From the NCBI RefSeq assembly GCF_053078305.1, contig NZ_CP166879.1: 64,000 bases of DNA. One strand, 5' to 3'. A model generated the notes under the pieces. That model searched no databases. It was not told the origin of the DNA and was given only the letters and a program-made list of their open reading frames with translations. Both the position numbers and the translations under genes were made by a program. Shown here piece after piece: positions 12,180 through 64,000 of this stretch (position 1 is its first letter; each line of letters starts with the position of its first letter).

Positions 12180-12232
12180 GGTTAGCTGTTGACTTTTTCC
12201 ATCAGTGATTTCAGTCTGTCCGGGCACATAAC

Positions 12233-12515
12233 GTCGCTCCGGCGACCACCAATGCTCCACAAGTGGCCTGAGAGGAGCGCCTTCGGGTGGCTACATGTCG
12301 CTTCGGCGACCACCAATGCTCCATAAGTGGTCTGAGAGGAGCGCCTTCGGGTGACCACATCCCGCTTCGGTGGGCACCAATGTTCCGTTGATCTGAGAGG
12401 AACGCCTTCGGGTGATCAACACCCCCGTAACCTGAAAGGGGATGTGCAGCCAGGATGTTTCTGGTGGTGGTAAATCTGCCCACCTTTGAGAGCAGATATC
12501 GTCAGTCATGACGAT
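12233..12515 (+). ncRNA. STAXI-type repeated-pseudoknot element, copy 1 (three 64-nt modules plus a conserved ~90-nt tail)
   Basis: Modules start at 12233, 12297 and 12361. Each has a tetraloop hairpin (GTCGC-TTCG-GCGAC), CCAAT, and a pseudoknot with covarying stems. G-U pairs are only possible in the + sense. Confidence 0.7.
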
Positions 12516-12644
12516 GAAGGTTTTCTTTAACTGTTACTGAGTCAGCCGGAATAGTTCTGTTCCGGCTCCCTGACGGGAATATCACAACCCGTCAGGGATG
12601 ATGATGTTCTCTGTCTTTCCGATACTGAGAATGGAGATATCATT

Positions 12645-32767: not shown

Positions 32768-33151
32768 GTATGAAAATAAAAACCTCCGGCGGAGTCGGAG
32801 GGGGCAAAAACAGATAGTCCCGGAGTGTATCTGTGTAAATGGTGTTATTGGTATAATAATGGTGGTAAAGACCACGGGAGAATTTATTCATTTTATTCGT
32901 CATGAAATCAACGGTAATAGTGTGTTTCTGTGACGGGAATAAAAAAATACAGCACCGCCGATGACCCGGTGCTGAAAACAGGTTAAATGTAGTGGGCACA
33001 TTTCCGGTAATATCAGGAACAGCATGTTATGGTTATAAAAGCATATACCGGGAGTGTGCCCTGGCACTGTGATGTTCTGGTTGTCTTTTGACCATTTTCC
33101 GGGGACGAAATATAAGCTGTTCTGCGTTAACACTTAATAATGAGAGATTGT

Positions 33152-43099: not shown

Positions 43100-43348
43100 T
43101 CACTCAGGATCTGATGGAGGTTTTTTACGAGAATTAAACTTATCGATCAGATTAAAAACTATCGCTGCTAGTGTTATCGATGTACCTGCTATGCACCCAA
43201 ACACAATAACTCTTATCATTTGGTGGGTCGGGAAAAAAAAGAATCCTTTTGTTAGGTAAATAAATAAAGCTCCTCCCCCCATCAAAAGAAATCCACTGAT
43301 GATACAAAAGAGGCATGCATATATGAACAATACAATGTAAGCAATCAT
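43100..43348 (-). CDS. cdiI: CdiI immunity protein (82 aa, integral membrane)
   Basis: 4-nt overlap with the cdiA stop. Hydrophobic helices IVLFIYACLFCIISGFLLMGGGALFIY and VIVFGCIAGTSITLAAIVF. Confidence 0.7.
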   Translation of the reverse strand: MIAYIVLFIYACLFCIISGFLLMGGGALFIYLTKGFFFFPTHQMIRVIVFGCIAGTSITLAAIVFNLIDKFNSRKKPPSDPE

Positions 43349-49300: not shown

Positions 49301-52290
49301 GTATGCAGACGGAGTTCACCTTCACTGACCAGCCGGCCCCCCTCACGGTTATCCAGCGAGGTGGTGCTCAGGTCAGCTGTCGTTTTCGCCCCCACGGTCC
49401 CGCCCCGGTTATCCATTGCTCCGGTACTGACAGTCAGTTCCTGCAGGCTGTTCAGCGTACCGCGTCTGTTATCCAGCGTCTGGCCTGCGGTATTAATGCT
49501 GATACCCCTCCCCTGAATAAGACCGGACTGATTGTTCAGCGCCTGGCTGTTCCAGCCGAGCAGACCGTTTGCCACCATCTGACCGGATGTATTGTTAACC
49601 ACGCCTGCAGTCAGGGACAGAGCATCTCCCGACAAAAGCACACCGGCAGTGCTGTCCAGTGTGCCGGCATTCAGCGTCATCGGACCCTGACTGATAACCC
49701 CGCCCCGGTCACCACTATTACGGTTACTCAGTGTGTCAGCACGGAGATTCAGCGATGCACCGCTCTGTATCAGGCCGCCGGCATCGTTGATGATATCCGT
49801 CGAGGAAAGTGTCAGTGACTGCTGTGCCACCAGTCTGCCGCCCTGATTATCAAACCGTGTGACATCCAGCCTGCTGTTACCGTTGCTGACCACCGTCCCC
49901 TGCTGATTTTCCAGCACACTCAGGTGCGTATTCAGGTCCCCGCCGGCGGCAAGCGCCCCTTCCTGATTACTGACATCACCACCACTCAGCAACATATCCG
50001 TCCCGGCCTTCAGTGCGCCTTTCTGGTTCATCAGCGTACCTGACGATATCTGTAATGACGTCTGACTCCCCAGCACGCCCTGACGGTTATCGAGCGTTCC
50101 GGCGTTCAGGGTCATATCCTTCTGACCCGCCATAAATCCCTGCTGGTTATTCAGCATACCGGCCCGCACTGTCAGGGTACCGGCGCTGCTGATACCACCC
50201 CGTGTTTTCGTGTTCCGGTTACTGAGTACCCCGTCCTGTACATCCAGCGTCATGTCACTGCCGGACTGAATCAGACCATCATCAGAGACCAGTTCGCTGC
50301 CTGACACAGACAGCGTTTTCTGTGAAAGCAGTCTGCCGGACGTATTATCCAGCGCACCATCCAGCGTCACAGACAGCCCGTCAGCCACCACCGTACCCTG
50401 GTGGTTATTCAGATTCCCTGCCGAAATATCCAGCCTGCCGGCGGACTCCATTCGTCCCTCAGTATTGCTGACAGCCTGCTGTGTTTTTATCCTGCCCGTT
50501 CCGGCAGCAGCTGAAATCAGTCCGTTGTCGTTATTCAGCGCCTGTGTATTAATCAGGATGTCACGGCTGGCAAGCAGACGTCCCTGCTGGTTATCCACGG
50601 CGCCGGTTGTCCTCACCTGCAGACTGCCTGACTGCGCCGCCTGCACTTTCCCCCTGCGATTATCAAGGCTCAGTGCATCCAGACGCACCGCGCCATTTGC
50701 CGCAAACAGCCCTTCCCGGTTATCCACGCTTCCCGGCAGACTCAGCGAAAAATCCCCTGTTCCCGTCTGAGTCAGACTGCCTTTACGATTTGACAGGCTT
50801 TGTGCCGATATCTGCAGTGTGTCGGCATTTATCGTGCCACCATTATTGCTGAAGTGCCCGACAGTCCGGGCGGAAAGCGTACCGGCACTCAGTTGCGCAT
50901 TCTGTGTGGACAGATTTCCACTGGTTGCATCCAGCTCAGTATGTTGTCCCTGTATCCGGCTGTTGCTTAAATCCAGCCCCTGCCCCTTCAGTTGCATGTC
51001 CCCACCGGACAGAACCTGTCCGTGTGCCGCCAGTTCGCCGGTGGTACTGACAGTCAGGTTGCCCGCTGCCGCCAGACGTCCGTCATCTTTCACCCCGGCG
51101 GCCAGCAGACTCCGCTCACCGCCGGTCAGACGCGCTGTCTGAATCCGGGTGTTGCGACGTGATGCCACAGAGCCTGTATGGGTGAAGACACCATCACTCT
51201 GTATCTGCGTATCCTGCCCCGCATAAACAGAACCACTGTTATGCAGCTCCCGGGTTGTCGCCAGATGCACATCCGTTTTCGCACTGATACTGCCACTGTT
51301 TTCAATACGTCCGTCAGCCGTCAGGGTAACCGCCCCTGCCTGTGCACCAATATGACCGGCGTTACGAACACCCACCCCCGTTTCCGTACCGACAAGGCGA
51401 ATTTTTCCGGCATACATTCCGCCAAGACTGGCCACATCCAGTGCCATCTGAGGCTGTGAAGAGACATCACCGGTCTTTTTCTCAATCTGCCCGTGCGCGA
51501 TATCCACATTGTTACGTCCTGTGGTCACTTTCAGATCCTGCGCCCAGATACCCGCATTAATCTTCACAGACCGGGCAATGATATCGGTATAATCCGTGCG
51601 CGAGGCATCCATCCCTTTGCCCGTAACCTGAATCTCACCACGTTCAACACTGAATCCGGTCAGACTGCCGTTTTTCATCTGCGGCTGCCCCGTGGTCAGC
51701 GTGGCCCGGTTCGCATTAATAAAACCGCACCCGTCGCAACTGATGCCGGCCGGGTTCGCAATCACCACCTGCGCCTTTTTACCGGCAACCTCAACAAAAC
51801 CGTTCAACTGGCTGGGATTGCGACTGTTCACTTCATTAAGAATGATTCTGGCCTCTCCCTTAGCCAGCCACGGGTTCCCGGCCACCATGCCACCCAGTTG
51901 AGTCTGCACATTGTTATGGGCATTATTCAGAATGACGCCCTGGTTACCGACGTCGAACTGGCTGTATGCGTTATGTGAAACCCCGCCGGCAGAAGGCGTC
52001 TGAATATTCACCTGCGGAATGCCGCTGGCCGTCTGCGTAATCGTGGGCTGCTGATACCCTGGTGCGCCATGGTCTGCGACAATGCCTGCAGCACTGACAG
52101 AATGCACCATCCCCGAAGCCAGCCACAAAGAGAATGCAAGCGGCGTGACACGGCAGATACGTTGCCTGTGTGGATATCCTGTGCGGGAGGACAGTGATGT
52201 ACCGGCGCGACCGGAACGGGCAATATCTGCCACCACCATCAGCATTCCCCGGGCTTTGTTAAAAATAATGCGGTAACAATTTCTGTTCAT
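43345..52290 (-). CDS. cdiA: CdiA contact-dependent inhibition exoprotein (2981 aa)
   Basis: ESPR signal MNRNCYRIIFNKARGMLMVVADIA; TPS domain (NAYSQFDVGNQGVILNN, IANPAGISCDGCGFINA); long FHA-type repeats; VENN at 44002-44013 followed by a 218-aa CT. Confidence 0.95.
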   Translation of the reverse strand: MNRNCYRIIFNKARGMLMVVADIARSGRAGTSLSSRTGYPHRQRICRVTPLAFSLWLASGMVHSVSAAGIVADHGAPGYQQPTITQTASGIPQVNIQTPSAGGVSHNAYSQFDVGNQGVILNNAHNNVQTQLGGMVAGNPWLAKGEARIILNEVNSRNPSQLNGFVEVAGKKAQVVIANPAGISCDGCGFINANRATLTTGQPQMKNGSLTGFSVERGEIQVTGKGMDASRTDYTDIIARSVKINAGIWAQDLKVTTGRNNVDIAHGQIEKKTGDVSSQPQMALDVASLGGMYAGKIRLVGTETGVGVRNAGHIGAQAGAVTLTADGRIENSGSISAKTDVHLATTRELHNSGSVYAGQDTQIQSDGVFTHTGSVASRRNTRIQTARLTGGERSLLAAGVKDDGRLAAAGNLTVSTTGELAAHGQVLSGGDMQLKGQGLDLSNSRIQGQHTELDATSGNLSTQNAQLSAGTLSARTVGHFSNNGGTINADTLQISAQSLSNRKGSLTQTGTGDFSLSLPGSVDNREGLFAANGAVRLDALSLDNRRGKVQAAQSGSLQVRTTGAVDNQQGRLLASRDILINTQALNNDNGLISAAAGTGRIKTQQAVSNTEGRMESAGRLDISAGNLNNHQGTVVADGLSVTLDGALDNTSGRLLSQKTLSVSGSELVSDDGLIQSGSDMTLDVQDGVLSNRNTKTRGGISSAGTLTVRAGMLNNQQGFMAGQKDMTLNAGTLDNRQGVLGSQTSLQISSGTLMNQKGALKAGTDMLLSGGDVSNQEGALAAGGDLNTHLSVLENQQGTVVSNGNSRLDVTRFDNQGGRLVAQQSLTLSSTDIINDAGGLIQSGASLNLRADTLSNRNSGDRGGVISQGPMTLNAGTLDSTAGVLLSGDALSLTAGVVNNTSGQMVANGLLGWNSQALNNQSGLIQGRGISINTAGQTLDNRRGTLNSLQELTVSTGAMDNRGGTVGAKTTADLSTTSLDNREGGRLVSEGELRLHTGGLQNSHGQIQSVGDMLLNSVRGVVDNVSGLIRSGSAITLNALQFINRHTQNTGQGLEAQTIHITTQDLDNQEGSILADRALTVMADRTLSNNDGVLSSGATLSVSGRQLAFSNRDGVVKAGQSVSVDAGQLGGDGKLLSLGDMTLKSNTTFSNSGQTIANGNLTLSVNGDVSNTGSLLAGSRLDLNSIRLENTEKGEISAGQTWLNVTDTLLNRGLIDGKYTHLQANTLTNSGTGRIYGDAVGVSAATFNNLEENGVAATLAGRERVDLGVQTLNNRTHSLIYSAGDMHTGGMLDANGAATGKAGVLNNHSATIEAAGYLVLSAGQINNVNDHFTTERVVVSTEKVTEYQLSGSDKRWSAGEPGVYVDNDSSNSLKKLHTPEGARDKFTQYDYTRTVEETRVKDSDPGKILSGAGMTIVADKLLNDKSQVVAGGLLTIPSGSVENVSVSGERHVTDSGTSTYYYRIRKKGKDKQGEKTSQYTPPTVIQSITLKPGELTSHGQIQGSQVTLSPLKPQGTDVQTGQAGNVDAAVAATDRIPLRPVVSAGEPVILLPGQQFEVSTPQGSIHVAGPDTRLPDSSLFKTNPAVNVPYLVETDPRFTNQKMWLGSDYMQKAFSQNGDNMLKRLGDGFYEQRLIREQVVALTGQRYLDRYGSDEEQFKALMDAGIAFGKQYNLKPGVALTAEQMALLTGDIVWLVNTTVTLPDGSTQTVQVPQVYARVKPGDVNSAGALIAGRDMVMKLDGDLFNSGKLAGKQTVQLSAENIHNQAGSIQGANVSLTARTDINSTGGLLQATDSLLAMAGRDISLTTTTRTAQRDAGQNHFERTSIDSVAGVYVQNDQGRLVLQAGRDMNLTAATVVNQGKDSLTQLSAGRDMTLSTVTTSAQDNIIWDKNNRLSQGVTQSTGSTLAGNGDVTLTAGRDMTSQAASLSAQKGLALMAGHDVTLTGAQNTRSLDEYHKVTGSSGMLSKTTTTTHDVTDRRTMTGSELNGDTVSISAGHNLNVTGSSVAGDNRVSLAAGNDLSIGTLTESNRETHLKQEKKSGLMSSGGVGFSVGSQSLKVTDTATDSTQKGSTVGSVHGDVSLQAGNRLSANSADLIAGRDMALSGKEVSISAVTDRHVQTHSVEQKTSGLTLALSGTVGSALNTTVETVQAAKSAGNSRLEALQGVKAALSGAQAVQAGRLAEAQGNQKENNNAVGISLSYGSQSSKSEQQSEQTVAKNSALTAGNNLSIQATGSGVKDVDGDLTIQGSQIKAGNNVLLQANRDVNLVSAENTSKLEGKNSSSGGSVGVGIGVGAGGWGISVSASANQGKGSEKGNGTTHTETTVDAGNRLTIISGRDTTLTGVQAGGETVKVDAGRHLTLTSEQDSDRYDSKQQNASAGGSFTFGSMSGSASVSLSRDKMHSNYDSVQEQTGIFAGRGGFDVTTGQHTQLNGAVIASTATADKNRLDTGTLGFRDIENRADYKVEHQSVGISTGGSIGGQFAGNMANNLLVGANHEGHAESTTQSAVSAGNITIRDTQSQKQDVADLNRDAAHANQTLSPIFDREKEQQRLQQAQLIGEIGNQVADIARTEGQIAGEKAKRDPAALNQAREELEAAGKPFTEQDVAQRAYNNGMAASGFGTGGKYQQAIQAATAAVQGLAGGNLSAALAGGAAPYIAEIIKQTTPDGAGRVAAHAVVNAALSLAQGKNALAGAAGAATGEVVGMIATQMYGKPVSELSGTEKQTVSTLATVAAGLAGGLVGDSGASAVAGAQSGKTTVENNALSFGDGFESNAAAATSWNKYAVDNNLTPEQTQAGLDKIAKGDMPDSTNITKVIVDGYQDGVMIAGAWYLGPAASVGKMVSGGVVAEIANGSYQWFDLSQPGNENKNWDWKSSASSGIAGMLAPGRTVGQNVGIAMGGAFFTDGPNTGSIGGAAAGAGLGGAFGVYAPGIVNSVTGKEFPGFIFDATGSFGSEFLGGYIKEASSNNQFSSSAKKEEGK

Positions 52291-52305: not shown

Positions 52306-52833
52306 TTATCTCTCCGGCACATCCACAGCAAGCGGGTGCTGCACACGCCACTGGCGCGCCTCTTCACGACTGACCTGTGCACCCCGGAAATTCATCACCC
52401 GTAACCCGGTCTGCTGCCCACGGTGGTACAGCGAACGCCAGCACAGACGGGGAAAAATATCCTGCCGGACAAGACGACTCATATCCGGAGTGTGTCCAAA
52501 AGGGGCAACCCAGTCACAGACCCACATCCGGTCGCCGCTGTTCCAGTCCGACTGAGGCATGAGAATTGCCGGCTGCGTAAGATAACGCGCCTCTGCCTCC
52601 GGGCTGAGCCAGGCCTGGCTCATGAAGAAAACCGGTCGCCCCTGCTCTGTTGCCACCACATACTGTCGGTGCTTAATCACCGGCAGCTGCAGGTCCGGCA
52701 GGGTATGCAGTGGCGCATCACGATGCAGGGGGGAGTGCATCCACAACCAGACGGCCGCCCCCAGGACTTCCGCCTCATTGACCGGCTCACCGGAATACAG
52801 GGGACTCAGAACGTCATATTTCCCGTTACGCAT
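52306..52833 (-). CDS. cdiC: CdiC, HlyC/TAAT-family toxin-activating lysine acyltransferase
   Basis: LGAAVWLWMHSPLHR, WNSGDRMWVCDWVAPFG parallel the HlyC motifs LGHVSWLWASSPLHR, WTSGDRKWFIDWIAPFG. Located between cdiB and cdiA. Confidence 0.85.
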   Translation of the reverse strand: MRNGKYDVLSPLYSGEPVNEAEVLGAAVWLWMHSPLHRDAPLHTLPDLQLPVIKHRQYVVATEQGRPVFFMSQAWLSPEAEARYLTQPAILMPQSDWNSGDRMWVCDWVAPFGHTPDMSRLVRQDIFPRLCWRSLYHRGQQTGLRVMNFRGAQVSREEARQWRVQHPLAVDVPER

Positions 52834-52842
52834 GAAACTTTC

Positions 52843-54582
52843 TCAGAAATCCCGGAACAGATTAAAACCGGCTGTCACATCACTCGTCATAAAACCCGCC
52901 GGCTTTGAAAACGGACGACCGATGAAAACGTCATAATCCGTACTGAACAGTTGCCCCCTCAGCCCCACAACACCACCGGCCAGATGACGTCCCACCAGAT
53001 ATTCACTGCCGGCTCCCCCCACCTCGCCGTAATCCATTCCCAGATATAACGCCTGCTCCGGCAGTGGCGTACGCCAGGCCAGGTCGTTGCGGATATACCA
53101 GCCGTTACTGGCATTCAGCGTTCGCTCCCCGTCAAAACCACGAACCGTCCAGCGGTTACCGATGGCAAACTGTTCCTGTGGGGTCAGCGGGGTATTGCTC
53201 AGCTGGCGCTGATACCGGAAGGAATAACTGAAGGGCTGCTCTGCCAGTGTAAAGGGCAGATTAAAGGATGCATTCATCTGCAGGATCTTACTGAGCGCCG
53301 TTGCCTCACCGAAGATTTCCTCCGGTGCCGGCTGTGCACCAAACCAGCGGGTTCCCCGTTGCCAGCTGACACCAGCATCCAGTGTGGCCTGAGAAATATA
53401 ATGACGGTGCTGCAGCCCAAGTCGCCAGGCCGCTGTCTGCCGGCGCTGCACCTGGATTTCCGTATCATTAATGTAGTTACGCGACCTGCGGGCCTGAACA
53501 TCGTAAGTCAGCACCGTTTTCTGCGTCCCGTTACGATGCAGTACCCGGCTCAGCTGCATGCCCAGATTCTGACTCTCGCCACTGTACTGGTAATCCTCAA
53601 CCGCACCAGCTACCGTCTGATGGTAATCGTAATCACTGGCGGTGACGGAAAACTGCCAGTAACCGAAAGGCACAGAGTAATGGGCCGTGTAGTTTTTACT
53701 GCCCTTACCCCCGTAATGTGGAAAATTATGGGTGGCAGAAACATACAGCAGGTCACTCAGGGAAAAAGGATTATCCAGAGAAAATGTTATACCACCGAGA
53801 TAACGCCCTGTGCTGCGGGTACCTGAATCATCAAGCGAAAACCCCAGTCGCCAGTATTTATCCTGTTTACGGGTAATAAGAATATCACTTTCCCCTGGCT
53901 GCTCACCGGGCACAATTTCCATATCAGCCTGCACACCCGGCAGTCGTTGCATATTCTCCAGCCCCTGCTCAATGTCCCGTAAATCCAGCAGAGAACCTTC
54001 GTGTGCCGGGAATGAGGAATACAACTGAATATAGTCATCACTGTCCGGTGTCAGACGCACATGTCGCACAACACCGGGAATAACAACCAGCCGGAGGATA
54101 CCGCTTTTTAAATCCTGCGAAGGTGCCAGAACACGGGTGGTGACATAACCATGATCGACAAGACGGTTCTGCAATGTACTCATCAGCAGATTAATTCCTT
54201 TCGCCCCCAGGCAATGCCCGACCGCCCCGTTGGCGATTTTTTGTAAAGGCAGCCAGTGTGGTAACGCATCAGCCCCCTTCAGTTCCGTCTGTTTAATCTG
54301 AAAACAGGGCGTTTCAACAGGAAAATTAATCTTATGGGCAAAAGAGCCAGGTGCAGAAAGGCGAACATCAGGGGCTGAAGGCGTCAGTTGTTGCTCAAGG
54401 GCTTCCTGACGCTGCTGCTGAATGATAAATGTATCCTCTCCACTACGCCGGATATCCGCGGCCTGAAGAGATAAAGGCGATAATAAAACAGACATCAGTG
54501 TCAGTGATAAAATGAACGGACAGCGCCGGAATAAGCTTTGTTCCTCAGCCCTCTCGTTCCTGCAACATAATTTTCCAGCCAA
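52843..54582 (-). CDS. cdiB: CdiB TpsB-family (ShlB/FhaC-type) outer-membrane transporter
   Basis: Signal peptide ...[15 protein letters not shown]-type N-terminus, beta-barrel ending in ...GFNLFRDF. Alternative start at M30 (54495). Confidence 0.9.
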
Positions 54583-56559: not shown

Positions 56560-56588
56560 TTGACGCCTTTTATACGCTCTGATATGCT
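56560..56588 (+). promoter_or_regulatory. sigma70-like promoter in front of STAXI copy 2
   Basis: TTGACG-17 nt-TATGCT. The -35 lies 44 nt upstream of the first STAXI hairpin, the same spacing as TTGACT in copy 1 and within 1 nt of TTGACA in copy 3. Confidence 0.45.
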
Positions 56589-56603
56589 CAGAATGCATTA
56601 TCT

Positions 56604-56822
56604 GTCGCTTCGGCGACCACCAATGCTCCATAAGTGGTCTGAGAGGAGCGCCTTCGGGTGGCCACATCCCGCTTCGGTGGGCACCAATGTTCCGTTGATC
56701 TGAGAGGAACGCCTTCGGGTGATCAACACCCCCGTAACCTGAAAGGGGATGTGCAGCCAGGATGTTTCTGGTGGTGGTAAATCTGCCCACCTTTGAGAGC
56801 AGATATCGTCAGTCATGATGAT
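56604..56822 (+). ncRNA. STAXI-type repeated-pseudoknot element, copy 2 (two modules plus tail)
   Basis: Near-identical to modules 2-3 and the tail of copy 1. The differences are G-U-compatible in the + sense (GTGGTC/GGCCAC; ATCGTCA/TGATGAT). Confidence 0.7.
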
Positions 56823-57467
56823 GAAGGTTTCTTTTAACCGCGCCCTTTATTACGGGCAATACACAGCAGTGGTTGTGTGATCCTTATCTATCCGGTGATG
56901 CCGGAATGTTTTTACTGCGTAATGGCGGTATTGACTTCTTTTATTCTTTTCATTTGTTTGCCAGCACTTCCTGCGACTGTGCGCGCTGTATAAGACCATT
57001 TGAAATTTGGTCGCTTACGCGTGTACCTGGCGTCTGAAGCTGCGCGGCGTCACTTTCGTCAGCGTGTCACGATGACAAAGTGACGCACGCGCGTCTGCTT
57101 AACGAACCCGCACGAACTGCCGTTTCACGTGATGTTTTTTAACATTTGAAGAAGTGACCCGGCGTGAGAGTGTTTTTTCAACCTCTTCTGCAAATTTACG
57201 GACGATTTTGTGAATAACGTCCATAAATGGTTTTTTGCAGAATTAATTGTTTTTTAAGGAGTTTTATGTAGTGAGATGCCGAATCGGCGATACCACTTAT
57301 TAGAGGTGGTGTCGGGGGCGACCTGGAGACAGGTACAGCAAATGCTGCAGTCGGTGTGCAACACCGATTTGTTACCCCTCAATACCTAAACAATCTGCGC
57401 TACCCTGGCGCACAGGCAGTCACTACCCGAAGGATCGCAACGTTTAACCGTGTCGTCAGGGAGAAAT

Positions 57468-57518
57468 GCAGATGAGTTTTTCTGTTGTGTTCACGGCACA
57501 ACAGAAAAACTCATCTGC
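57468..57518. repeat. perfect 22-bp inverted repeat with a 7-nt spacer (lox/FRT-like architecture)
   Basis: GCAGATGAGTTTTTCTGTTGTG-TTCACGG-CACAACAGAAAAACTCATCTGC, 49 nt upstream of the recombinase ATG. Confidence 0.9.
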
Positions 57519-57567: not shown

Positions 57568-58470
57568 ATGTCCAGACGTGAAAAATTACTGAAACAGGAT
57601 CTGGTTGCTCACATTCGAAAAGACAAAGGCAGCTTCAAGAAGCTGAGTGATTACACCAGGATCATGCACCGCTTTGCTGAAAGTCTGGCAAAAATGAATG
57701 TACAGATCAGTTCTGCCGCGCAGGTAAAAGTCCGGCATATTGAGCTATATATGAGAAGCCGGAGTAATGTTTCTGGGCGAACAAGGGAAAATGAAATGTC
57801 TGCAATACGGGTTATGTTACGTCAGGCAGGTAAATATAAGATGGCTGATCCCGAACATCCTCGTCTCAGCAATAAAGCGTTAGGCATTTCCGGCTCCAGT
57901 CGTAAGGGAACAAAAAAATTAATCACGGATGAGCGTTTTCGGGAGATTCTTCAGCGTGTGGAAGCAAAAGATAAAGGGGTGGCTGCTGTTGTTAAACTGT
58001 CACGTTACCTCGGTCTGAGAAATGAAGAAGCTATCCAGTCGGCCAAATCATTACGAACCTGGAAAAAAGCGTTACAACGGGGAGATGAAAAAATAAGAGT
58101 GATTTTTGGTACGAAAGGGGGACGGGAAAGAATGACAACGGTTGTTGACCGGGATAACGTTCTTGATGCTGTTAATTATGCACTCAAATATGCCAGTGAA
58201 CATAATGGACGTCTTATAGACAGAGATAATCTTAAGTCGGCAATGGATTATTATCTTAATACATTACGTCGTTATGGAGAACTGAAAGGCGGAGATGAGA
58301 CTGCACACAGTTTTCGGTACAGTTACGCTGCAAGTGCCATGAAATATCATATTATGAACGGTTACAGTTATAAGGAGGCACTTGCACTGACATCAATTGA
58401 TCTTGGTCATGGTGATGGCAGAGGACGATATATTGAACAGGTTTATTGTCAGTTGTTAGGCTATGAGTAA
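57568..58470 (+). CDS. tyrosine recombinase / integrase-family protein
   Basis: RBS AGGAG. Catalytic-type residues in LGLRNEE (R), GTKGGRER (K), AHSFRYSYA (HxxR), LGHGDG (H), RYIEQVY (Y). Confidence 0.75.
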   Translation: MSRREKLLKQDLVAHIRKDKGSFKKLSDYTRIMHRFAESLAKMNVQISSAAQVKVRHIELYMRSRSNVSGRTRENEMSAIRVMLRQAGKYKMADPEHPRLSNKALGISGSSRKGTKKLITDERFREILQRVEAKDKGVAAVVKLSRYLGLRNEEAIQSAKSLRTWKKALQRGDEKIRVIFGTKGGRERMTTVVDRDNVLDAVNYALKYASEHNGRLIDRDNLKSAMDYYLNTLRRYGELKGGDETAHSFRYSYAASAMKYHIMNGYSYKEALALTSIDLGHGDGRGRYIEQVYCQLLGYE

Positions 58471-58502: not shown

Positions 58503-58826
58503 ATGGATTGTACTATTTTGCTGAAAATAATCTCTGTAAAAGAGATTACAAAAAATTCGCCTTTGTGGTCACACTATCTGGCGCGATATGTTGATTCCGG
58601 ATATCAGGCCGAGTTTGAATGTGAAGGAACAGCAGATAAATGGGATATCTATGATGAATGGGACATCTATGAATCCATTGCGGATTATTTTGATGTGGTA
58701 GGAGATTTTAACTGTGATGTCAGATGGTCGGGAAGAAAAATACTGATTAAAGGGACCTGTGTTTTTCCTCTGGGAGAACCCGTTAAGGGAATACATAATA
58801 TTCCTCTTTGGATTGATGTTGAATAA
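58503..58826 (+). CDS. hypothetical protein (107 aa)
   Basis: Track ORF, AT-rich. Confidence 0.4.
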   Translation: MDCTILLKIISVKEITKNSPLWSHYLARYVDSGYQAEFECEGTADKWDIYDEWDIYESIADYFDVVGDFNCDVRWSGRKILIKGTCVFPLGEPVKGIHNIPLWIDVE

Positions 58827-58827
58827 C

Positions 58828-58856
58828 TTGACATTCATCTTTTGTGATTTAAAAAT
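58828..58856 (+). promoter_or_regulatory. sigma70-like promoter in front of STAXI copy 3
   Basis: TTGACA-17 nt-AAAAAT; -35 is 43 nt upstream of the first hairpin. Confidence 0.4.
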
Positions 58857-58870
58857 ATACAGGCTTATAT

Positions 58871-59089
58871 GTCGCTTCGGCGACCACCAATGCTCCATAA
58901 GTGGTCTGAGAGGAGCGCCTTCGGGTGACCACATCCCGCTTCGGTGGGCACCAATGTTCCGTTGATCTGAGAGGAACGCCTTCGGGTGATCAACACCCCC
59001 GTAACCTGAAAGGGGATGTGCAGCCAGGATGTTTCTGGTGGTGGTAAATCTGCCCACCTTTGAGAGCAGATATCGTCAGTCATGACGAT
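58871..59089 (+). ncRNA. STAXI-type repeated-pseudoknot element, copy 3 (two modules plus tail)
   Basis: Near-identical to copy 2 and to modules 2-3 of copy 1. Confidence 0.7.
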
Positions 59090-59227
59090 GAAGGTTTCTT
59101 TATAACTGCGCCCTTTATTAACGGGCTTTTTCTGACAGCAACACCATGCTGTACTGGTGGTGTTTTAACCCTGACGGGAGTTTTTGTCCGTCGGGGCGAA
59201 GGCTCCCGTTTTTTTACAGGAGTCTTT

Positions 59228-59620
59228 ATGTCAACGTTTATTTTGTGCCCTGAACCGGGCATCTCTTCTTTTTTCCGGCGAATGACGGCTCAGTTGCGGG
59301 TGTTTTTTTCCCGCAATAACCTGTCATATTACAGTCGCTGGTACACTAATCCGGCCGGCAATCTGAGCGTGCGGGTCTGTATGTTCCGTCGTGGCGGTGT
59401 CTGGACACCCTGCCTGTATTACCGGCAGGGAATGTATCGCAACGAGTACACAGGATGGTATCAGCCGTTACCGCGTGAGGTCATTTATCTGAACCGGTTT
59501 ACCGGACGGATATCCCGTCGCAGGACATGGCATGCTGCCTGCCGTATGGCGGAGCAACTGACCACCCTGCGTTACCGGTTTGGTCTGCAGGGTGATGGAA
59601 TCGTCGCACAGCCCTGCTGA
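59228..59620 (+). CDS. hypothetical protein (130 aa)
   Basis: ATG after CAGGAG. The track ORF 59060.. runs in from the STAXI element and is trimmed here. Confidence 0.45.
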   Translation: MSTFILCPEPGISSFFRRMTAQLRVFFSRNNLSYYSRWYTNPAGNLSVRVCMFRRGGVWTPCLYYRQGMYRNEYTGWYQPLPREVIYLNRFTGRISRRRTWHAACRMAEQLTTLRYRFGLQGDGIVAQPC

Positions 59621-59640
59621 TTTATCATTTATTACCCTGT

Positions 59641-59685
59641 CGGGAACACGCTTCCCGCAGGGCAGGTGTGTTCCCGTTATTTTTT
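59641..59685 (+). terminator. intrinsic terminator
   Basis: CGGGAACAC...GTGTTCCCG followed by TTATTTTTT. An alternative hairpin CCCTG...CAGGG overlaps it. Confidence 0.6.
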
Positions 59686-59702
59686 GTATCTGAGGTGAAC
59701 AC

Positions 59703-60182
59703 ATGCATAGTCTGTTAATACTCCTTTACGTTGTTGTATGGCGTGCCTGCACCATTCTTCGGGTAATCGCACCAGTGTCGGCTGTCCGTGCGTGGTGTGA
59801 GTATCAACTGGAAGGTATGACGATACTTCGTGATGCGTACAGCTCGCTGGCTAAGGCGGCTGGAATGCAGAATGATGCATTTGAATATACTGAAAGTATT
59901 GCACGTCATCTGGGCTACAAAAGCGGTGGTGACCAACTGAAATCAGGACTTTTCCGGCCGTTTCTGTGGCATATACGTGTGAAAGGCCACAGGCTGGGGG
60001 CTGTCATGGAGATGGAGGCATGGAAGACATGGAAGAATGGCTGTAACGATGTCTGCAATCCATGGGAGGATGTCTGTAATCCATGGGAGCGTGGATGGAA
60101 CGATGGCTGGACGGAATGTCTGAATCAACGTATAGCCGGGCTCCTGAAGCAGGCCTGTATTGAATTTTCCGACGCAGACTGA
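59703..60182 (+). CDS. hypothetical protein with a duplicated DVCNPWE motif; start uncertain
   Basis: Track ORF only. Confidence 0.4.
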   Translation: MHSLLILLYVVVWRACTILRVIAPVSAVRAWCEYQLEGMTILRDAYSSLAKAAGMQNDAFEYTESIARHLGYKSGGDQLKSGLFRPFLWHIRVKGHRLGAVMEMEAWKTWKNGCNDVCNPWEDVCNPWERGWNDGWTECLNQRIAGLLKQACIEFSDAD

Positions 60183-60377
60183 CGGGCAGGATGCCAGTCA
60201 GTCACAGGAAGGATGTCAAATCGTGAGCGATGCAACTGCCATTTTGCAATGATGGCTGTTTTGCTCCCGTAACGGTTTTTCTTTTACTTACTGCACCGTG
60301 TTTTTGCGCCGGTGTTTTCCCTGACGGGAGTTTTGTTCCGTCAGGGACAGGACTTCCTTTAAGAGACGGAGGTCATC

Positions 60378-60755
60378 ATGTATTCACCTTTAATTGCTCA
60401 TTATTCAGCGCTTCAGACGCAGTCTGCTCTGCTGGCTCATATCAGTCAGATGGAAGGCGAGCTGATGCGGTTACGTGCCTGGCAACGGCTGGGTATTACC
60501 CCGGAGCCGGATGATGAGACGGAGCCTTCACTGGTATACGTGTATCTGTGGGATACCGGCGAGGCGCTGGGCTGGCTGTTGTATGACCTGGAGCAGGAGG
60601 AGATTTCCGCACCGGGAATTCAGGCCCGTCAGGCACTCGACAGTCTGATGGCTCTGGGGCGTGAAATTAATCATGAAATCTGGGCTGACAGTATCAGTAC
60701 CGGAAAGATGGTGGCCGGAGCGGATGAATATTTTGCCCGGCACGACATGATGTAA
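60378..60755 (+). CDS. hypothetical acidic protein (125 aa)
   Basis: RBS GACGGAGG. Confidence 0.5.
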   Translation: MYSPLIAHYSALQTQSALLAHISQMEGELMRLRAWQRLGITPEPDDETEPSLVYVYLWDTGEALGWLLYDLEQEEISAPGIQARQALDSLMALGREINHEIWADSISTGKMVAGADEYFARHDMM

Positions 60756-60836
60756 TTCATGACCTGACTCTGACGGGGGAGTTCTCCGTCCGGGAGACAT
60801 TCCCCGTTGTTTAGTTTTAACCATGAGGAATGTTCC

Positions 60837-61466
60837 ATGTCTGAGTTATCTTCACGTCCGGTCCGTGAGCCGGTGGTATATACCCTTGAGCAGGTTTCCA
60901 CAATACCGGAAAAGCAGTGGCATGCTTTTGTTCTGGCTGTCACTGAAACCTTCTGGCAGTTGCCGGAGGCGTTACGGCCGCAGAATGCGTATTTCGGCTC
61001 CCTGACCCGGGCGTCAGAGTTGTTTCCGGTAACGGACACGCTGGCGTTTTACTGCCGGTCTGCCGACGGGCTGTGGTCGGTGAATGTCACTATTGAGCGG
61101 GAGCACAGCCGGAATATCCTGGCTCTTAATGAGCTGAATTTCGGACGTCAGCCGGGAGATTTCTTTGCCCGTACAGTCTTTGTGCTGTTGCACAATCTGT
61201 GTCCGGACTGTTTTCGTATTCATTCCACTGTCGGTGGTGCCAGCTGGTCGCTGCCGCTGAAATGGATAAAACGGTACCTGGGGCATGAGAATTTTTCTGC
61301 TCCGGAGTCTGTATTAACCACCCCGGTAAGGGGAGATGCGTTTGACAGCTTACTGCTGCAGTTTTTGTCCGGTCAGGGGCGACAGTTATCCCCGGATGAC
61401 TGGGCAGCACTGGAAGAGGCCGAATATCAGCTTTACTGGCTGCGGGCTCTTGCCGGTGGGCGGTAA
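60837..61466 (+). CDS. hypothetical protein (209 aa)
   Basis: ATG after GAGGAA; the track ORF is trimmed. Confidence 0.5.
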   Translation: MSELSSRPVREPVVYTLEQVSTIPEKQWHAFVLAVTETFWQLPEALRPQNAYFGSLTRASELFPVTDTLAFYCRSADGLWSVNVTIEREHSRNILALNELNFGRQPGDFFARTVFVLLHNLCPDCFRIHSTVGGASWSLPLKWIKRYLGHENFSAPESVLTTPVRGDAFDSLLLQFLSGQGRQLSPDDWAALEEAEYQLYWLRALAGGR

Positions 61467-61581
61467 CAGAACGCCGTAGTTTCTTTATCCGGAATAACGT
61501 CATCACGTATTCCGTCATTATATCACCCGGCAGGGACATATCCCTGTGGGGAGAGTCCCGGCTTTATTCAGGAGAATTGTT

Positions 61582-61965
61582 ATGGGACTCGATATTTACT
61601 TTCTGGCTCGTGATAACCATCACAGTGGTGCCGTTGTGGGAACACAGGAACATCAGGAGGTGGGGGCTTTCCGTAAGGTGAAACCGCTTCTGACATGGTT
61701 TCGTGAACATACCGGTGCTTCAGATGAGCAGCATGCTTTCCCTGTAACCCGCAGTTCACTGGCTGCATTATTGCGCGACCTCAGTATGCTGACACCGGGG
61801 AACTGCCACAGGCTGTTTCCTTATGTCACAGGCTCGTGTTTACGGGGGGAAGATTATGCCGGTGATTACTGGTATGACGTGGATGACGTAAAAGCGTGGG
61901 TCAGCAATACGCTGAAGACGTTTGATTTTGAGCGTCGTTCACTGGTGATGCTGGCGTTGTGGTAA
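61582..61965 (+). CDS. hypothetical protein (127 aa)
   Basis: ATG after CAGGAGAA. Confidence 0.5.
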   Translation: MGLDIYFLARDNHHSGAVVGTQEHQEVGAFRKVKPLLTWFREHTGASDEQHAFPVTRSSLAALLRDLSMLTPGNCHRLFPYVTGSCLRGEDYAGDYWYDVDDVKAWVSNTLKTFDFERRSLVMLALW

Positions 61966-62057
61966 TTCTGGCCAGTCTGATTTTCGTTATTAATTTAACT
62001 GTACGGTGCACTCTCACCGTACAGGGAGCGTGCATCTTTTTCAGGGGGCATGCTCTT

Positions 62058-63035
62058 ATGAAAACGAAAAAACATACTTCACGTACCGCGATTAAAACTC
62101 CGGAACGTGACCTGTATCAGCTTGTGACCGACAGGGTTGTTACGGCCATTGAAAATGGTGTGCCACCCTGGAAACGTCCCTGGCGCTCTGCGCGTAATGG
62201 CGTGGGGCTTCCGGAGATGATGCCGGCAAATGCCCTGACCGGGAAGCCTTATACAGGGGTGAACGTCCTGTTGCTGTGGCTGGCCGCGGATGAAGCCGGG
62301 TATGTCAGCAATGACTGGCTGACGTACCGTCAGGCGCAACAACTGGGTGGCCACGTCCGTAAAGGGGAGGTGGCCACGCTGGCGGTGATTTACAAAGACT
62401 GGAAAAAACAGGCTGTGGATGAACACGGTAACCGGCTGACGGACAGTGAGGGGGAGCCTCTCATGGAAATCGTACCGGTACTGAAATCGAATCCTCTGTT
62501 TAATGTGGGGCAGTGTGACGGTTTACCTGAACATCTGATGGTGAAGGCGGAAGGCAGCGCGGATGCACTGCCGGCAGATACCTTCAGTGAGCGGGTGCTG
62601 CAGGTACTGAATGGCAGCGGCGTCAGCGTCTCGTCACTTCCACAGGACAGGGCATTCTACCGGCCTGATCTTGACCGTATCGTGATGCCACTGTCGTCGC
62701 AGTTTGACCAGGTGGCTGATTACTGGACCACCCTGCTGCATGAGCTGGTACACAGTACCGGTCATGAAAAGCGCCTGCGGCGGGTGGGGATAAGTACCTT
62801 TACCGGTCGCAAAAGCCCGGAATATGCGTTTGAAGAGCTGATTGCCGAGATGGGCAGTGCTTTTCTGTGTGCACATCTCGGGATTGCCGGTGACGTACAG
62901 CACGAAAGTTATATTGACGGATGGCTTAAGGTTCTGAAGTCTGACAAAAAAGCGCTGTTTCGCGCCTGCCGGCAGGCACGTGAAGCATCAGAGTATTTAC
63001 TGACGCGGCGAACTTCGCAGGAGTGCGCAGCATAA
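62058..63035 (+). CDS. ardC: ArdC-like antirestriction protein (ssDNA-binding N-domain plus zincin metalloprotease)
   Basis: DLYQLVTDRVVTAIENGVPPWKRPW and NDWLTYRQAQQLGGHVRKGE (ArdC-N); HELVHSTGH HExxH motif. Confidence 0.8.
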   Translation: MKTKKHTSRTAIKTPERDLYQLVTDRVVTAIENGVPPWKRPWRSARNGVGLPEMMPANALTGKPYTGVNVLLLWLAADEAGYVSNDWLTYRQAQQLGGHVRKGEVATLAVIYKDWKKQAVDEHGNRLTDSEGEPLMEIVPVLKSNPLFNVGQCDGLPEHLMVKAEGSADALPADTFSERVLQVLNGSGVSVSSLPQDRAFYRPDLDRIVMPLSSQFDQVADYWTTLLHELVHSTGHEKRLRRVGISTFTGRKSPEYAFEELIAEMGSAFLCAHLGIAGDVQHESYIDGWLKVLKSDKKALFRACRQAREASEYLLTRRTSQECAA

Positions 63036-63081
63036 TTTTTACTACCGGTGGCGGTTATAACCTGACCGCCATTTATCCCGT

Positions 63082-63118
63082 GAGGGCATTGTACCTCACG
63101 GGACAATGCCCTCTTTTT
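63082..63118 (+). terminator. intrinsic terminator after ardC, with a competing upstream hairpin
   Basis: GAGGGCATTGT...ACAATGCCCTC followed by TTTTT. The mutually exclusive hairpin is CCCGTGAGG/CCTCACGGG (63077-63102). Confidence 0.7.
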
Positions 63119-63148
63119 ACATCTGTATAAAAAAGAGGAGCGTAAACA

Positions 63149-64000
63149 ATGTCTGAATGGTGCAAAAACCGTTTTGAAATTACCGGTAAATCAGTCTGTC
63201 TTGATGTACTTACACAGTGGATTGAAGGGCGTGAGACCCCGCGCTACCGTCATGCCATACAGCAGAGTATACAGCTGTTTCTGGCCGGTTGTGCAGGGCT
63301 GGTAAAACCCACACGGACGACGCAGTATCCGCCATATCCGGCGCTGGTTCGTCAAGGAACGGGGTTGTCATCTCCGGCTAACCAGGCGTTTGAGCAGTGG
63401 CTGGGGTTGCTGGTAAAAAATGCCGTTCTGGATGGTGAAACGATAAAGACCATTGAGCGTCTTTATCACCAGTCATGTATCGGCGCTGTTCGCTGGGGTA
63501 ATCTGCCGGATAATGCCAGGGAGATCATCACCACGCTGATGAGCCGTCAGTATTCTGACTGGTTTGGTCTGGCCGGGCTGAGTGAACACATTGATGCAGA
63601 AGCCTGCTGGAGCTGGTTGTCGGATTACCCGGAACAGGCGCAGCCCTGTGACATGCTGATGGTCATACCCTCCCGTCTGGCTACAGAGCTGAATGGTTCA
63701 GGTGGACTGCTGCAGGGTATTTCCACAACGACCAGCCTTTACAGCCGGATATACGGTGTGGAGTGGCCGTCAGGAAATAATGTTCGCCATGCGCGTGATG
63801 AGATGAGCAGTCTGGTGCTGCTGATCGACACGCCCTGGTATCCGCCTTCAGGCGAACTGGTTGGTGAGATCTCGAAGGTGTTTGACTGCGAGGTCCGACA
63901 CTGGTACAGCGAGCCGGTACACGGTATACAGGGTTACAACTGTTACGATGGCGGAGAGCATACGGACAGTGATCTGCAGGCCGAATGGCCGGGCAGGGAA
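63149..64000 (+). CDS. hypothetical protein, 3'-truncated by the window end
   Basis: RBS AAGAGGAG, ATG 63149. I translated 284 codons to nt 64000 without a stop. Not in the ORF track, presumably because no stop is reached. Confidence 0.55.
   Translation, partial: MSEWCKNRFEITGKSVCLDVLTQWIEGRETPRYRHAIQQSIQLFLAGCAGLVKPTRTTQYPPYPALVRQGTGLSSPANQAFEQWLGLLVKNAVLDGETIKTIERLYHQSCIGAVRWGNLPDNAREIITTLMSRQYSDWFGLAGLSEHIDAEACWSWLSDYPEQAQPCDMLMVIPSRLATELNGSGGLLQGISTTTSLYSRIYGVEWPSGNNVRHARDEMSSLVLLIDTPWYPPSGELVGEISKVFDCEVRHWYSEPVHGIQGYNCYDGGEHTDSDLQAEWPGRE

Follow-up and report, generated by a model that had tools for sequence, protein, structure and literature searches.

A STAXI-led operon carrying ardC beside a probable oriT and MOB_M relaxase gene in an E. 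coli ICE

Results

We analyse a single stretch of 64,000 nucleotides (contig NZ_CP166879.1 of RefSeq assembly GCF_053078305.1; 'the window' below), the features of which are collected in Table 1. The host element is an SGI-4/SPI-7-type (MPF_G) ICE in the E. coli chromosome at tRNA-Phe, recognised by its TIGR037xx conjugation genes, a parA-dnaB-parB-topB-ssb module and a tyrosine integrase adjoining the tRNA gene; this typing draws on how RefSeq annotates copies that share 98-99.6% identity with the window, and on Pfam matches for topB, ssb and TraG. The cargo of the ICE is a two-partner secretion haemagglutinin, and a second relaxase, MOB_H TraI, is encoded with a UvrD-like helicase roughly 14 kb downstream.

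The interval 58503-64000 holds eight genes, all on the + strand: six without a domain (107, 130, 159, 125, 209 and 127 aa, in order), then ArdC (325 aa) and a DUF1281/Api92-like gene. Near-identical ICE copies show the operon running on into an orphan N6-methylase gene, which follows the DUF1281/Api92 gene in related copies, and then into CBASS and the TacAT toxin-antitoxin pair. A sequence-only reading of this DNA had described a one-directional run of small genes ending in ArdC and one more, with SSB, topoisomerase and a further STAXI on the same strand. This description holds for the eight genes as well as for topB, ssb and all three STAXI copies, and the shared orientation is typical of nearly the whole ICE backbone rather than peculiar to this block. 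Two details change: STAXI does precede the block in the case of copy 2, but copy 3 lies inside it, between orf107 and orf130; and while ArdC is genuine, the last gene, taken as unknown, belongs to Api92/DUF1281, for which a structure is solved.

Table 1. Features of the window discussed in the text
Feature	Position	Strand	Remarks
topB	9918-11966	+	Pfam-confirmed
STAXI copy 1	12360-12525 (Rfam)	+	five pseudoknot units across 12232..12530
CTGACGGG hairpin	12570-12593		downstream of STAXI copy 1
ssb	13422-13982	+	Pfam-confirmed
sigma70-like promoter, STAXI copy 2	56560..56588	+	TTGACG-17-TATGCT, TG-extended; ends ~13 nt before copy 2
STAXI copy 2	56603-56768 (Rfam); 56598..56834	+	RF01728, 90.9 bits
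GC-rich long inverted repeat, candidate oriT core	57037..57098	.	ssDNA fold z = -5.4 (+), -3.4 (-)
EFASI motif	57268..57425	+	Rfam RF02957; 53.2 bits, a marginal pass of the gathering threshold (51.2); between candidate oriT and relaxase gene
perfect hairpin	57468..57518	.	22-nt inverted-repeat arms, 23 pairs in fold; fold z = -9.4; just upstream of relaxase gene
tyrosine-recombinase-like protein, probable MOB_M relaxase	57568..58470	+	Pfam Integrase_1 3e-55 and Phage_int_SAM_2
orf107, acidic orphan (pI 4.5)	58503..58826	+	starts 32 nt after relaxase gene; dN/dS 0.22
sigma70-like promoter, STAXI copy 3 and operon	58828..58856	+	TTGACA-17-AAAAAT
STAXI copy 3	58870-59035 (Rfam); 58865..59101	+	RF01728, 93.6 bits; 5' leader for the operon from orf130 to ArdC
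CTGACGGG hairpin, overlapped by a 17-pair terminator with T7 after it	59171..59210	+	attenuator-like; ends 18 nt before orf130
orf130, basic orphan (pI 10.5)	59228..59620	+	dN/dS 0.22
hairpin and T-run after orf130	59641..59686	+	z = -3.5
orf159, Trp/Cys-rich orphan	59703..60182	+	tandem CNPWE repeat; dN/dS 0.67
second CCCTGACGGG...CCGTCAGGG hairpin copy	60318..60347	+	upstream of orf125
orf125, acidic orphan (pI 4.4)	60378..60755	+	weak PHROG match; dN/dS 0.28
third CTGACGGG hairpin and terminator-like element	60768..60806	+	upstream of orf209
orf209, conserved orphan	60837..61466	+	motif QPxDFFAR..LLHNLCP..IHS
orf127	61582..61965	+	small family of ~120-aa proteins (MGLD...FDFE...AWW)
ArdC anti-restriction protein	62058..63035	+	ssDNA-binding N-domain and HExxH zincin domain
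strong hairpin and T-run after ardC	63078..63116	+	spacer z = -7.8
DUF1281/Api92-like gene	63149..64000	+	cut by window end; solved structure 2ijr

ArdC matches both family domains (ArdcN PF08401, 1.7e-36; zincin peptidase PF18818, 5.4e-38), carries the HELVH motif and is homologous over its full length to the solved R388 protein (6i89; E = 7e-60); judged by these matches, it is a genuine member of the family. It shares ArdcN, the zincin domain and HELVH with the IncW R388/pSa proteins (PDB 6i89, 6sna), but the copy here is chromosomal, ICE-borne and placed within a STAXI-led operon.

Upstream of the block, the product of the gene labelled 'integrase domain-containing protein' by PGAP is 52% identical over 98% of its length to WP_033567157.1 of pSGI4, a protein listed as a MOB_M seed in a 2026 preprint (where the family HMM has a cut-off of 84 bits). 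It contains GLRNEE, HSFRYSYA and LGH...RYIEQVY, which we take as the conserved tyrosine-recombinase active-site motifs. By homology to a recognised member, this gene probably encodes a MOB_M relaxase.

Ahead of the relaxase gene lies a GC-rich inverted repeat that is kept in SGI-4 with compensatory changes. The repeat falls within a 497-bp segment common to relaxase-less O157:H7 ter/ure islands: 601 E. coli records contain a homologue of 56964-57459 with about 77% identity, in the context of a ure/ter island with STAXI present and the relaxase absent. Such oriT mimics without a relaxase are the pattern reported in the 2026 preprint, according to which the mimic in O157:H7 TAI islands shares 60% identity with the oriT mapped in SGI-4. 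The segment 56964-57459, with its inverted repeat and EFASI, is probably the oriT region, a position taken from the preprint's statement and from sequence conservation. EFASI sits downstream of STAXI and upstream of the 'integrase' gene, and scores 85-91 bits at orthologous positions in SGI-4, Erwinia psidii and an Erwinia plasmid. The perfect hairpin that follows shows compensatory changes in cM8a. Because the relaxase is homologous to that of SGI-4 and 56964-57459 recurs in relaxase-less islands, we place the block 1-7 kb from the probable oriT.

All three STAXI copies pass the Rfam gathering threshold of 40.5 bits with room to spare (93.6, 90.9 and 76.2 bits). Copies 2 and 3 are the arms of a 237-nt direct repeat (D1) and are 99% identical, and copy 1, which separates topB from the STY4534-ssb genes, is served by a TTGACT promoter of its own. 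The sequence-only reading had likened the block to the leading region of conjugative plasmids, whose genes often lie behind structured single-stranded DNA promoters. In a classical leading region, the block would enter first and STAXI, as an Frpo/ssi-like promoter on the transferred strand, would drive zygotic anti-defence expression before complementary-strand synthesis. ArdC, the orphan methylase and a toxin-antitoxin pair do lie together near the probable oriT, each STAXI stands ahead of ssb, the relaxase gene or ardC, and the original description of STAXI allowed a role in ssDNA. However, a promoter of the Frpo type must form on the template strand, whereas each STAXI unit keeps a conserved G.U pair and the structure is therefore specific to the sense strand. 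A conserved sigma70-type -35/-10 pair lies about 13 nt upstream in 9 of 9 copies from four elements, STAXI RNA has been detected in resident cells, the UUCG loops favour RNA, and the genes are on the relaxase side and directed away from the probable oriT. We consider a classical leading region very unlikely. STAXI has the look of a sigma70 transcript's 5' end and not of an ssDNA promoter, and copy 2 is probably the 5' part of a primary transcript that crosses oriT and EFASI.

The hairpins and terminators noted earlier between the genes withstand comparison with shuffled sequence: each of the seven intergenic spacers has a better fold than its dinucleotide shuffles (z from -2.5 to -7.8), and terminator-like sites number 21 where 8.5 +/- 2.4 are expected. 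The element ahead of orf209 also lies in front of that gene's homologue in SGI-4 and Erwinia psidii. Cis-acting leader RNAs such as phage HK022 put, EAR and pLS20 conAn let polymerase read through terminators. STAXI resembles them as a structured RNA right after several promoters, each before an operon with internal terminator-like hairpins, and we find no other recognisable promoters in the STAXI-led operons. It has no sequence or structural relationship to these leaders, and a role as stabiliser, decoy or sRNA precursor is just as conceivable as one as a read-through leader.

As the earlier reading had said for most genes of the block, none of the six small proteins matches Pfam or NCBIfam, and PHROGs returns only two of the six, in function-unknown families (orf125, 1e-6; orf127, 2e-12). 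Together with the poor AlphaFold model of orf127, this raises the question of whether the ORFs are merely non-coding or decaying filler between structured RNAs. Against this, all six keep their frames and have identical lengths in an ICE copy that is 9% diverged (dN/dS 0.13-0.67, below 1 in every case), homologues are found in other genera, the predicted model of orf209 is confident, and the homologues of orf209 and orf127 are fused in SGI-4 into one 334-aa protein. Filler is barely credible; the orphan ORFs are real genes under purifying selection.

SGI-4 and Erwinia psidii have homologues of orf130 with 33-35% identity, relatives of orf127 are present in SSU5-like phage-plasmids, and orf130, orf209 and orf127 belong to a backbone that is conserved across genera, not to an island with fast turnover. 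A comparison of the orf209 model with solved structures found no relative. The idea that the ORFs are candidates for anti-restriction, anti-CRISPR or anti-SOS functions gains nothing from our domain, PHROG and structure comparisons, in which none of the orphans resembles an anti-defence family or fold already known. A STAXI copy separates orf107 from orf130, and so we group orf107 with the upstream 'integrase' gene rather than with the ArdC operon. Its relatives are confined to E. coli and Salmonella, and it has no similarity to the SGI-4 gene in the equivalent position. Because orf107 takes the position of mpsB in SGI1, by analogy it is more likely a relaxosome accessory than an anti-defence protein.

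The order of genes and motifs is kept across five elements in three genera, with STAXI, EFASI, relaxase gene, STAXI and small ORFs following one another also in E. coli cM8a, Erwinia psidii, pSGI4 and an Erwinia plasmid. SGI-4 shares TraG, a hyp190 homologue, STAXI, EFASI, the MOB_M gene and STAXI, followed by the homologues of orf130 and orf209, ArdC, DUF1281 and the N6-methylase; at its far end, as here, are a UvrD-like helicase, TraI and the integrase. The proteins share only 32-67% identity, SGI-4 lacks counterparts of orf107, orf159 and orf125, and its cargo is sil/pco.

In SGI1, a promoter gives a long RNA across oriT and an essential sRNA, followed by mpsA-mpsB. The ICE is laid out like this module (oriT, sgm-sRNA, mpsA, mpsB): a tyrosine-recombinase-like relaxase gene follows a GC-rich inverted-repeat oriT, with a structured RNA domain in the space between the two, a hairpin directly ahead of the gene and a small second gene after it, and a strong sigma70 promoter is expected to yield a long RNA that meets a terminator-like hairpin early on. 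EFASI occupies the place of the sgm-sRNA, an equation by position only. SGI1 differs in being a helper-dependent IME with no downstream ArdC operon, and the likeness described here is one of layout.

Discussion

How does the block compare with the leading islands of plasmids (Samuel et al., 2024)? Both have co-directional small unknown genes by oriT with anti-restriction, an orphan methylase and toxin-antitoxin; the known anti-defence gene here is ArdC, with the orphan N6-methylase and TacAT in the near-identical copies. Here, however, the carrier is an ICE whose relaxase is of the MOB_M type, conserved backbone makes up about half of the small genes, and the structured elements ahead of the genes (STAXI) are sense-strand RNA motifs with ordinary promoters, where plasmid islands have Frpo/ssi hairpins. 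Plasmid islands lie beside oriT and opposite the relaxase gene, and the operational definition for plasmids puts the leading region there; our block lies downstream of the probable MOB_M gene, with the probable oriT upstream of that gene, and hence on the relaxase side. If the transferred strand served as template in 5'-first transfer, transcription would run toward oriT, whereas all genes point away from it (an outcome that would reverse if MOB_M transfer were 3'-first). From its relaxase-side position and its direction of transcription, the block is therefore on the lagging side by the usual plasmid definition. Of the leading-region proposal there remains the proximity of ArdC, and of methylase, CBASS and TacAT beyond it, to the probable oriT; the side and the direction of transcription do not fit.

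It is natural to ask whether the block simply enters last. The relaxase gene would be last by the classical rule, the small conserved ORFs would serve the MOB_M module as accessories of the relaxosome, of replication or of regulation, and ArdC would act only after circularisation or be delivered as protein. The operational definition, co-transcription in the relaxase direction, the cross-genus backbone genes orf130, orf209 and orf127 and the position of orf107 all point this way. Yet anti-restriction and methylase genes would then be worst placed for guarding incoming DNA, the reverse of the plasmid pattern, while the opposite side of oriT holds variable cargo and T4SS genes; moreover, the classical rule presumes a 5'-linked relaxase and may not hold for tyrosine-recombinase-like enzymes. 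We regard a trailing position as a real but minority possibility. A bolder conjecture, which we hold tentatively and think unlikely, is that MOB_M is linked to the 3' end and the DNA enters 3'-first, so that the relaxase side leads, the ardC operon is a true leading region and STAXI and EFASI are RNAs of the machinery. The transferred strand would then be the operon template, with transcription and complementary-strand synthesis following the direction of entry; EFASI would correspond to the essential sgm-sRNA of SGI1, and STAXI would be a leader carrying polymerase past internal attenuators.

The account that we favour, with moderate confidence, is that the interval represents a module for establishment and anti-restriction, close to oriT, in an SGI-4/SPI-7-type ICE. 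In ICEs and IMEs, according to a preprint, genes for anti-defence and defence are found clustered close to oriT. The module comprises, in order, a sigma70 promoter, STAXI leader, GC-rich inverted repeat (probable oriT), EFASI, MOB_M relaxase gene and orf107, and then a second promoter and STAXI leader, an attenuator-like hairpin/terminator, orf130, orf159, orf125, orf209, orf127, ardC and api92. The operon would be transcribed from the STAXI promoter as RNA, with several hairpin/terminator elements to be read through on the way; incoming DNA would be shielded from restriction by ArdC and by the methylase that lies beyond it; orf209 and orf127 may work together, and the small proteins may be establishment or host-interaction factors. 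Several points count against this account: the read-through or antitermination role of STAXI is deduced only from its position, no orphan is detectably linked to a known anti-defence protein and the conserved ones might just as well be accessories of DNA processing or regulation, the oriT is a candidate placed by preprint and conservation, and MOB_H TraI could act at another origin.

For plasmids whose relaxases are classical, it is established that the DNA transferred first carries anti-defence islands, and chromosomal elements with tyrosine-recombinase-like relaxases are very common. In this ICE and in at least three related elements, ArdC and an orphan methylase are found directly behind the relaxase gene. 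This arrangement therefore predicts either a reversed polarity of transfer or anti-restriction from the trailing end. The locus also ties the Rfam motifs STAXI and EFASI to a defined mobilisation module, in which their function is open to deletion tests, and it offers conserved, selected orphans (orf130 and the orf209-orf127 pair) that are worth screening against defence systems.

The block within an integrative conjugative element

The region is chromosomal in 750 of the 754 places where it was matched, and it shares 99.6% identity with the E. coli O22:H8 strain 154 chromosome. Judged by near-identical copies annotated in RefSeq, the element is an MPF_G integrative conjugative element (ICE) at tRNA-Phe. 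It starts with parA, dnaB-PI, parB, topB, STAXI, STY4534 and ssb, followed by TIGR037xx transfer genes, traG and cargo; the middle runs through STAXI, EFASI, an ‘integrase domain’ gene, orf107, STAXI, the orphan ORFs (named here by length in residues), ArdC, DUF1281 and an orphan N6-methylase; and it ends with a type II CBASS (some copies), TacAT, a UvrD-like helicase, MOB_H TraI and the integrase. A contig scan with ArdC gave only 2 loci, and comparisons were instead drawn from annotated collections.

The block at 58503-64000 comprises eight co-directional ORFs, listed below with the other mapped features. A sequence-only reading had described it as a unidirectional run of small genes with structured spacers, and this held up: 7/7 intergenic spacers fold better than shuffles (z -2.5 to -7.8) and terminator-like sites are enriched (21 against 8.5 +/- 2.4 expected). 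The shared direction is real, but nearly the entire element has it. The STAXI elements said to precede the block are indeed on the plus strand, although one copy sits inside the interval and splits orf107 from the other ORFs. ArdC is confirmed by its ArdcN and zincin peptidase domains (Pfam) and by a match to the solved R388 ArdC at E = 7e-60, and the topoisomerase and SSB noticed elsewhere in the window are topB and ssb. The last gene, previously another unknown, can be named as Api92/DUF1281, although its function is obscure (PDB 2ijr, a structure without assigned function).

Coordinates and strand of features mapped in the window
Feature	Coordinates	Strand	Source
orf107	58503-58826	+	
orf130	59228-59620	+	
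orf159	59703-60182	+	
orf125	60378-60755	+	
orf209	60837-61466	+	
orf127	61582-61965	+	
ArdC	62058-63035	+	
DUF1281 gene	63149 onward, truncated by window end	+	
STAXI	12360-12525, 56603-56768, 58870-59035	+	Rfam
EFASI	57268-57425	+	Rfam
CCCTGACGGG-arm hairpins	12570-12593, 59171-59192, 60321-60342, 60770-60790		
2981-aa haemagglutinin-repeat protein	43345-52290	-	
HlyC-type acyltransferase	52306-52833	-	
ShlB/FhaC-type transporter	52843-54582	-	

Cargo differs between copies. In the window it is a two-partner secretion system on the minus strand, within a stretch of reversed GC skew. Strain 154 (NZ_CP067426.1) carries two ICE copies, at about 1.31-1.39 Mb and 4.92-5.01 Mb, at different tRNA-Phe genes, one with Hcp/DUF2778 and the other with a two-partner secretion haemagglutinin. 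The TraG_N gene, a single 1509-nt gene in strain 154, is here two overlapping ORFs (37715-38299 and 38283-39233); the split reflects either a frameshift, with possible loss of transfer for the copy in the window, or an error in sequencing. Another feature of the ICE is a strong match (137 bits) to the STnc100 sRNA, placed ahead of a DUF465 gene in the stretch that separates the methylase region from traI (32731-32933 of comparison locus L001).

A candidate oriT beside a probable MOB_M relaxase gene

The gene at 57568-58470, an ‘integrase domain-containing protein’ to PGAP, encodes 300 aa with Pfam Integrase_1 at 3e-55. Its product aligns across 98% of its length with WP_033567157.1 from pSGI4, the SGI-4 record, at 52% identity. 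That protein is among the seeds of the MOB_M relaxases, a tyrosine-recombinase-like class whose members are often labelled integrases and of which 44% go with MPF_G ICEs (10.64898/2026.01.13.699239).

The non-coding segment 56964-57459 has a 497-bp homologue in 601 E. coli records, mostly EHEC, at about 77% identity. The O157:H7 homologue (L009 7001-7497) belongs to the ure/ter island, where a STAXI copy precedes the segment (L009 6682-6833) but there is no relaxase gene. The O157:H7 TAI islands have been described as hitchers that lack a relaxase and carry an oriT with 60% identity to that of SGI-4, which has been localised by experiment (10.64898/2026.01.13.699239); our own searches with the 497-bp segment agree with this account, and the O157:H7 homologue would fit a relaxase-less oriT mimic. 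The segment also holds EFASI and a GC-rich long inverted repeat (57037-57098; ssDNA fold z = -5.4), kept in SGI-4 with compensatory changes. We also considered an oriT beside the MOB_H traI/uvrD-like operon, but the spacer ahead of it shows little conservation across ICE variants and contains no notable inverted repeat. Because the MOB_M homology, the relaxase-less homologues and the conserved inverted repeat all belong to the first site, we infer a candidate oriT occupying roughly 56.96-57.46 kb, on the upstream side of the block and 1-7 kb away from it. The MOB_H TraI may act at a different site.

The order STAXI, EFASI, MOB_M gene, STAXI and small co-directional ORFs recurs in the window, E. 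coli cM8a, Erwinia psidii and pSGI4, and also in a 50-kb Erwinia plasmid, where five small uncharacterised genes follow. In the ICEs, the run of ORFs behind the second STAXI closes with ArdC, DUF1281 and the methylase. This arrangement resembles the mobilisation module of SGI1, in which an RNA of 650-700 nt, made from a strong sigma70 promoter and bearing an early terminator-like hairpin, crosses oriT. The 3' part of this RNA, between oriT and mpsA, is an sRNA that transfer requires; mpsA itself has a hairpin on its 5' side and mpsB behind it. Here, likewise, a promoter (56560-56588) is followed by the second STAXI copy, the inverted repeat, EFASI, a perfect hairpin (57468-57518; z = -9.4), the relaxase gene and orf107. 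Since the order of parts is parallel, EFASI may be the positional counterpart of the sgm-sRNA and orf107 that of mpsB.

Putative STAXI leaders and hairpin attenuators

Across four elements, each of the nine STAXI copies examined is preceded, at a distance of about 13 nt, by a promoter of the form TTGACx, 17-18 nt, TAxxxT, and the sequence between the hexamers varies among them. Over some 235 nt the three copies in this ICE hardly differ. A G.U pair (CGCC-UUCG-GGUG) is retained in every pseudoknot unit; on the opposite strand it would become an A.C mismatch. Transcripts of STAXI are on record from Pectobacterium (strand-specific RNA-seq) and from STEC vesicles (RT-PCR), and the original description leaned to RNA because of the UUCG loops. 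Given sigma70-type promoters in front, strand-specific G.U pairs and detection as RNA, an Frpo-like role for STAXI, in the manner of the structured ssDNA promoters of conjugative plasmids, is unlikely. For a G4-type priming signal, a CsrA sponge or a trans partner of the CTGACGGG hairpin we found weak sequence hints only.

Downstream of the third STAXI copy, a 17-pair hairpin with a T7 run (59173-59210) ends 18 nt before orf130, and no further promoter-like site was found on the plus strand from 59.1 to 64 kb. A hairpin with a CCCTGACGGG arm, overlapping a terminator-like hairpin, lies 40-70 nt upstream of several start codons, preceding STY4534, orf130, orf125 and orf209. The window holds 5 matches, where 0 were expected, and corresponding sites in cM8a, Erwinia psidii and SGI-4 (L007, L005 and L008) carry the hairpin too. 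The arm sequence is conserved across the E. coli, Erwinia and Salmonella elements, which points to either an attenuator switch or a specific factor that recognises the arm. On the simplest reading, one transcript from the STAXI promoter would have to pass several attenuators, with STAXI as a leader acting in stabilisation or read-through, or as an sRNA precursor.

The orphan proteins

In the cM8a copy, about 9% diverged, all ORF lengths are kept, and dN/dS is 0.13-0.67 for the orphans compared with 0.07-0.18 for the integrase-like gene, ArdC and DUF1281; for these reasons the orphans are genes. The least constrained ORF in the block is orf159 (0.67), which also carries a perfect tandem 21-nt repeat (60048-60089) encoding DVCNPWE twice in its Trp/Cys-rich C-terminal part.

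Homologues of orf130 and orf209 occupy the same positions in Erwinia psidii and SGI-4 at 33-35% identity; none at the same position was found there for orf107, orf159 or orf125, and orf107 has no similarity to the SGI-4 gene at the equivalent position. The SGI-4 homologue of orf130 is an unannotated 138-aa ORF (L008 13769-14185), at a site where RefSeq annotates an opposite-strand 49-aa ORF (record 62816-62965). A 334-aa protein of SGI-4 is homologous to orf209 in its N-terminal half (32% identity, E = 9e-30), and towards its C-terminus it aligns with the profile of the orf127 family as far as the terminal tryptophan (hhalign 88.7%, E = 2.6e-6). That both are fused in one protein argues that orf209 and orf127 may act together.

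An exhaustive search of 1.8 billion representatives gave 45 clusters of the orf127 family, standalone proteins of about 120 aa, with relatives in SSU5-like phage-plasmids amid runs of small uncharacterised genes. Its profile matched nothing in PDB or Pfam, and its structure prediction was poor (pLDDT 40). The orf209 model is good; it has no structural neighbour in PDB, and its neighbours are unnamed viral proteins only. As the sequence-only reading had stated, the orphans carry no recognisable domain (0/6 match Pfam or NCBIfam). Two of the six match PHROGs families, both of unassigned function, and word-indexed searches place orf209, orf127 and orf107 in narrow enterobacterial families, with orf107 restricted to E. 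coli and Salmonella. Across Pfam, NCBIfam, PHROGs and the word-indexed searches, remote homology returned nothing functional, and the proposal that these are anti-defence proteins met no known anti-defence family or fold.

A probable establishment module and its order of entry

How far does the block resemble a plasmid leading region, as had been proposed? It lies near the candidate oriT, with ArdC, the orphan methylase, toxin-antitoxin and CBASS grouped, and in ICEs and IMEs, defence and anti-defence genes are reported to cluster near oriT (10.64898/2026.01.13.699239). The opposite flank of oriT, moreover, holds variable cargo and then T4SS genes. In some ICE copies a four-gene type II CBASS (nucleotidyltransferase, ThiF/E1-like, JAB and SAVED effector; L002 11991-16302, L007 22492-26803) is inserted directly 3' of the methylase, so that a defence-gene hotspot adjoins the anti-restriction operon; it is missing from strain 154. 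Against the proposal, the block shares its side of the candidate oriT with the relaxase gene and is transcribed away from that site, whereas in plasmids the leading region is the side opposite the relaxase and the transferred strand templates the leading genes. This usual definition is, however, not warranted for MOB_M systems (10.64898/2026.01.13.699239), and, as a MobK study points out, the chemistry of tyrosine recombinases would keep the enzyme attached to the 3' end. Given these opposing points and the caveats on MOB_M polarity, we moderately favour an oriT-proximal establishment and anti-restriction module and give the block about equal chances of entering the recipient first or last.

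The ICE family, ArdC, Api92, STAXI, EFASI and the presence of anti-defence genes near oriT are already known. What appears to be new is the putative recurrent CTGACGGG attenuator, the fusion of orf209 with orf127, the assignment of STAXI and EFASI to a mobilisation module with the SGI1 sRNA as precedent, and the conserved placement of an ArdC operon directly behind the MOB_M relaxase gene.
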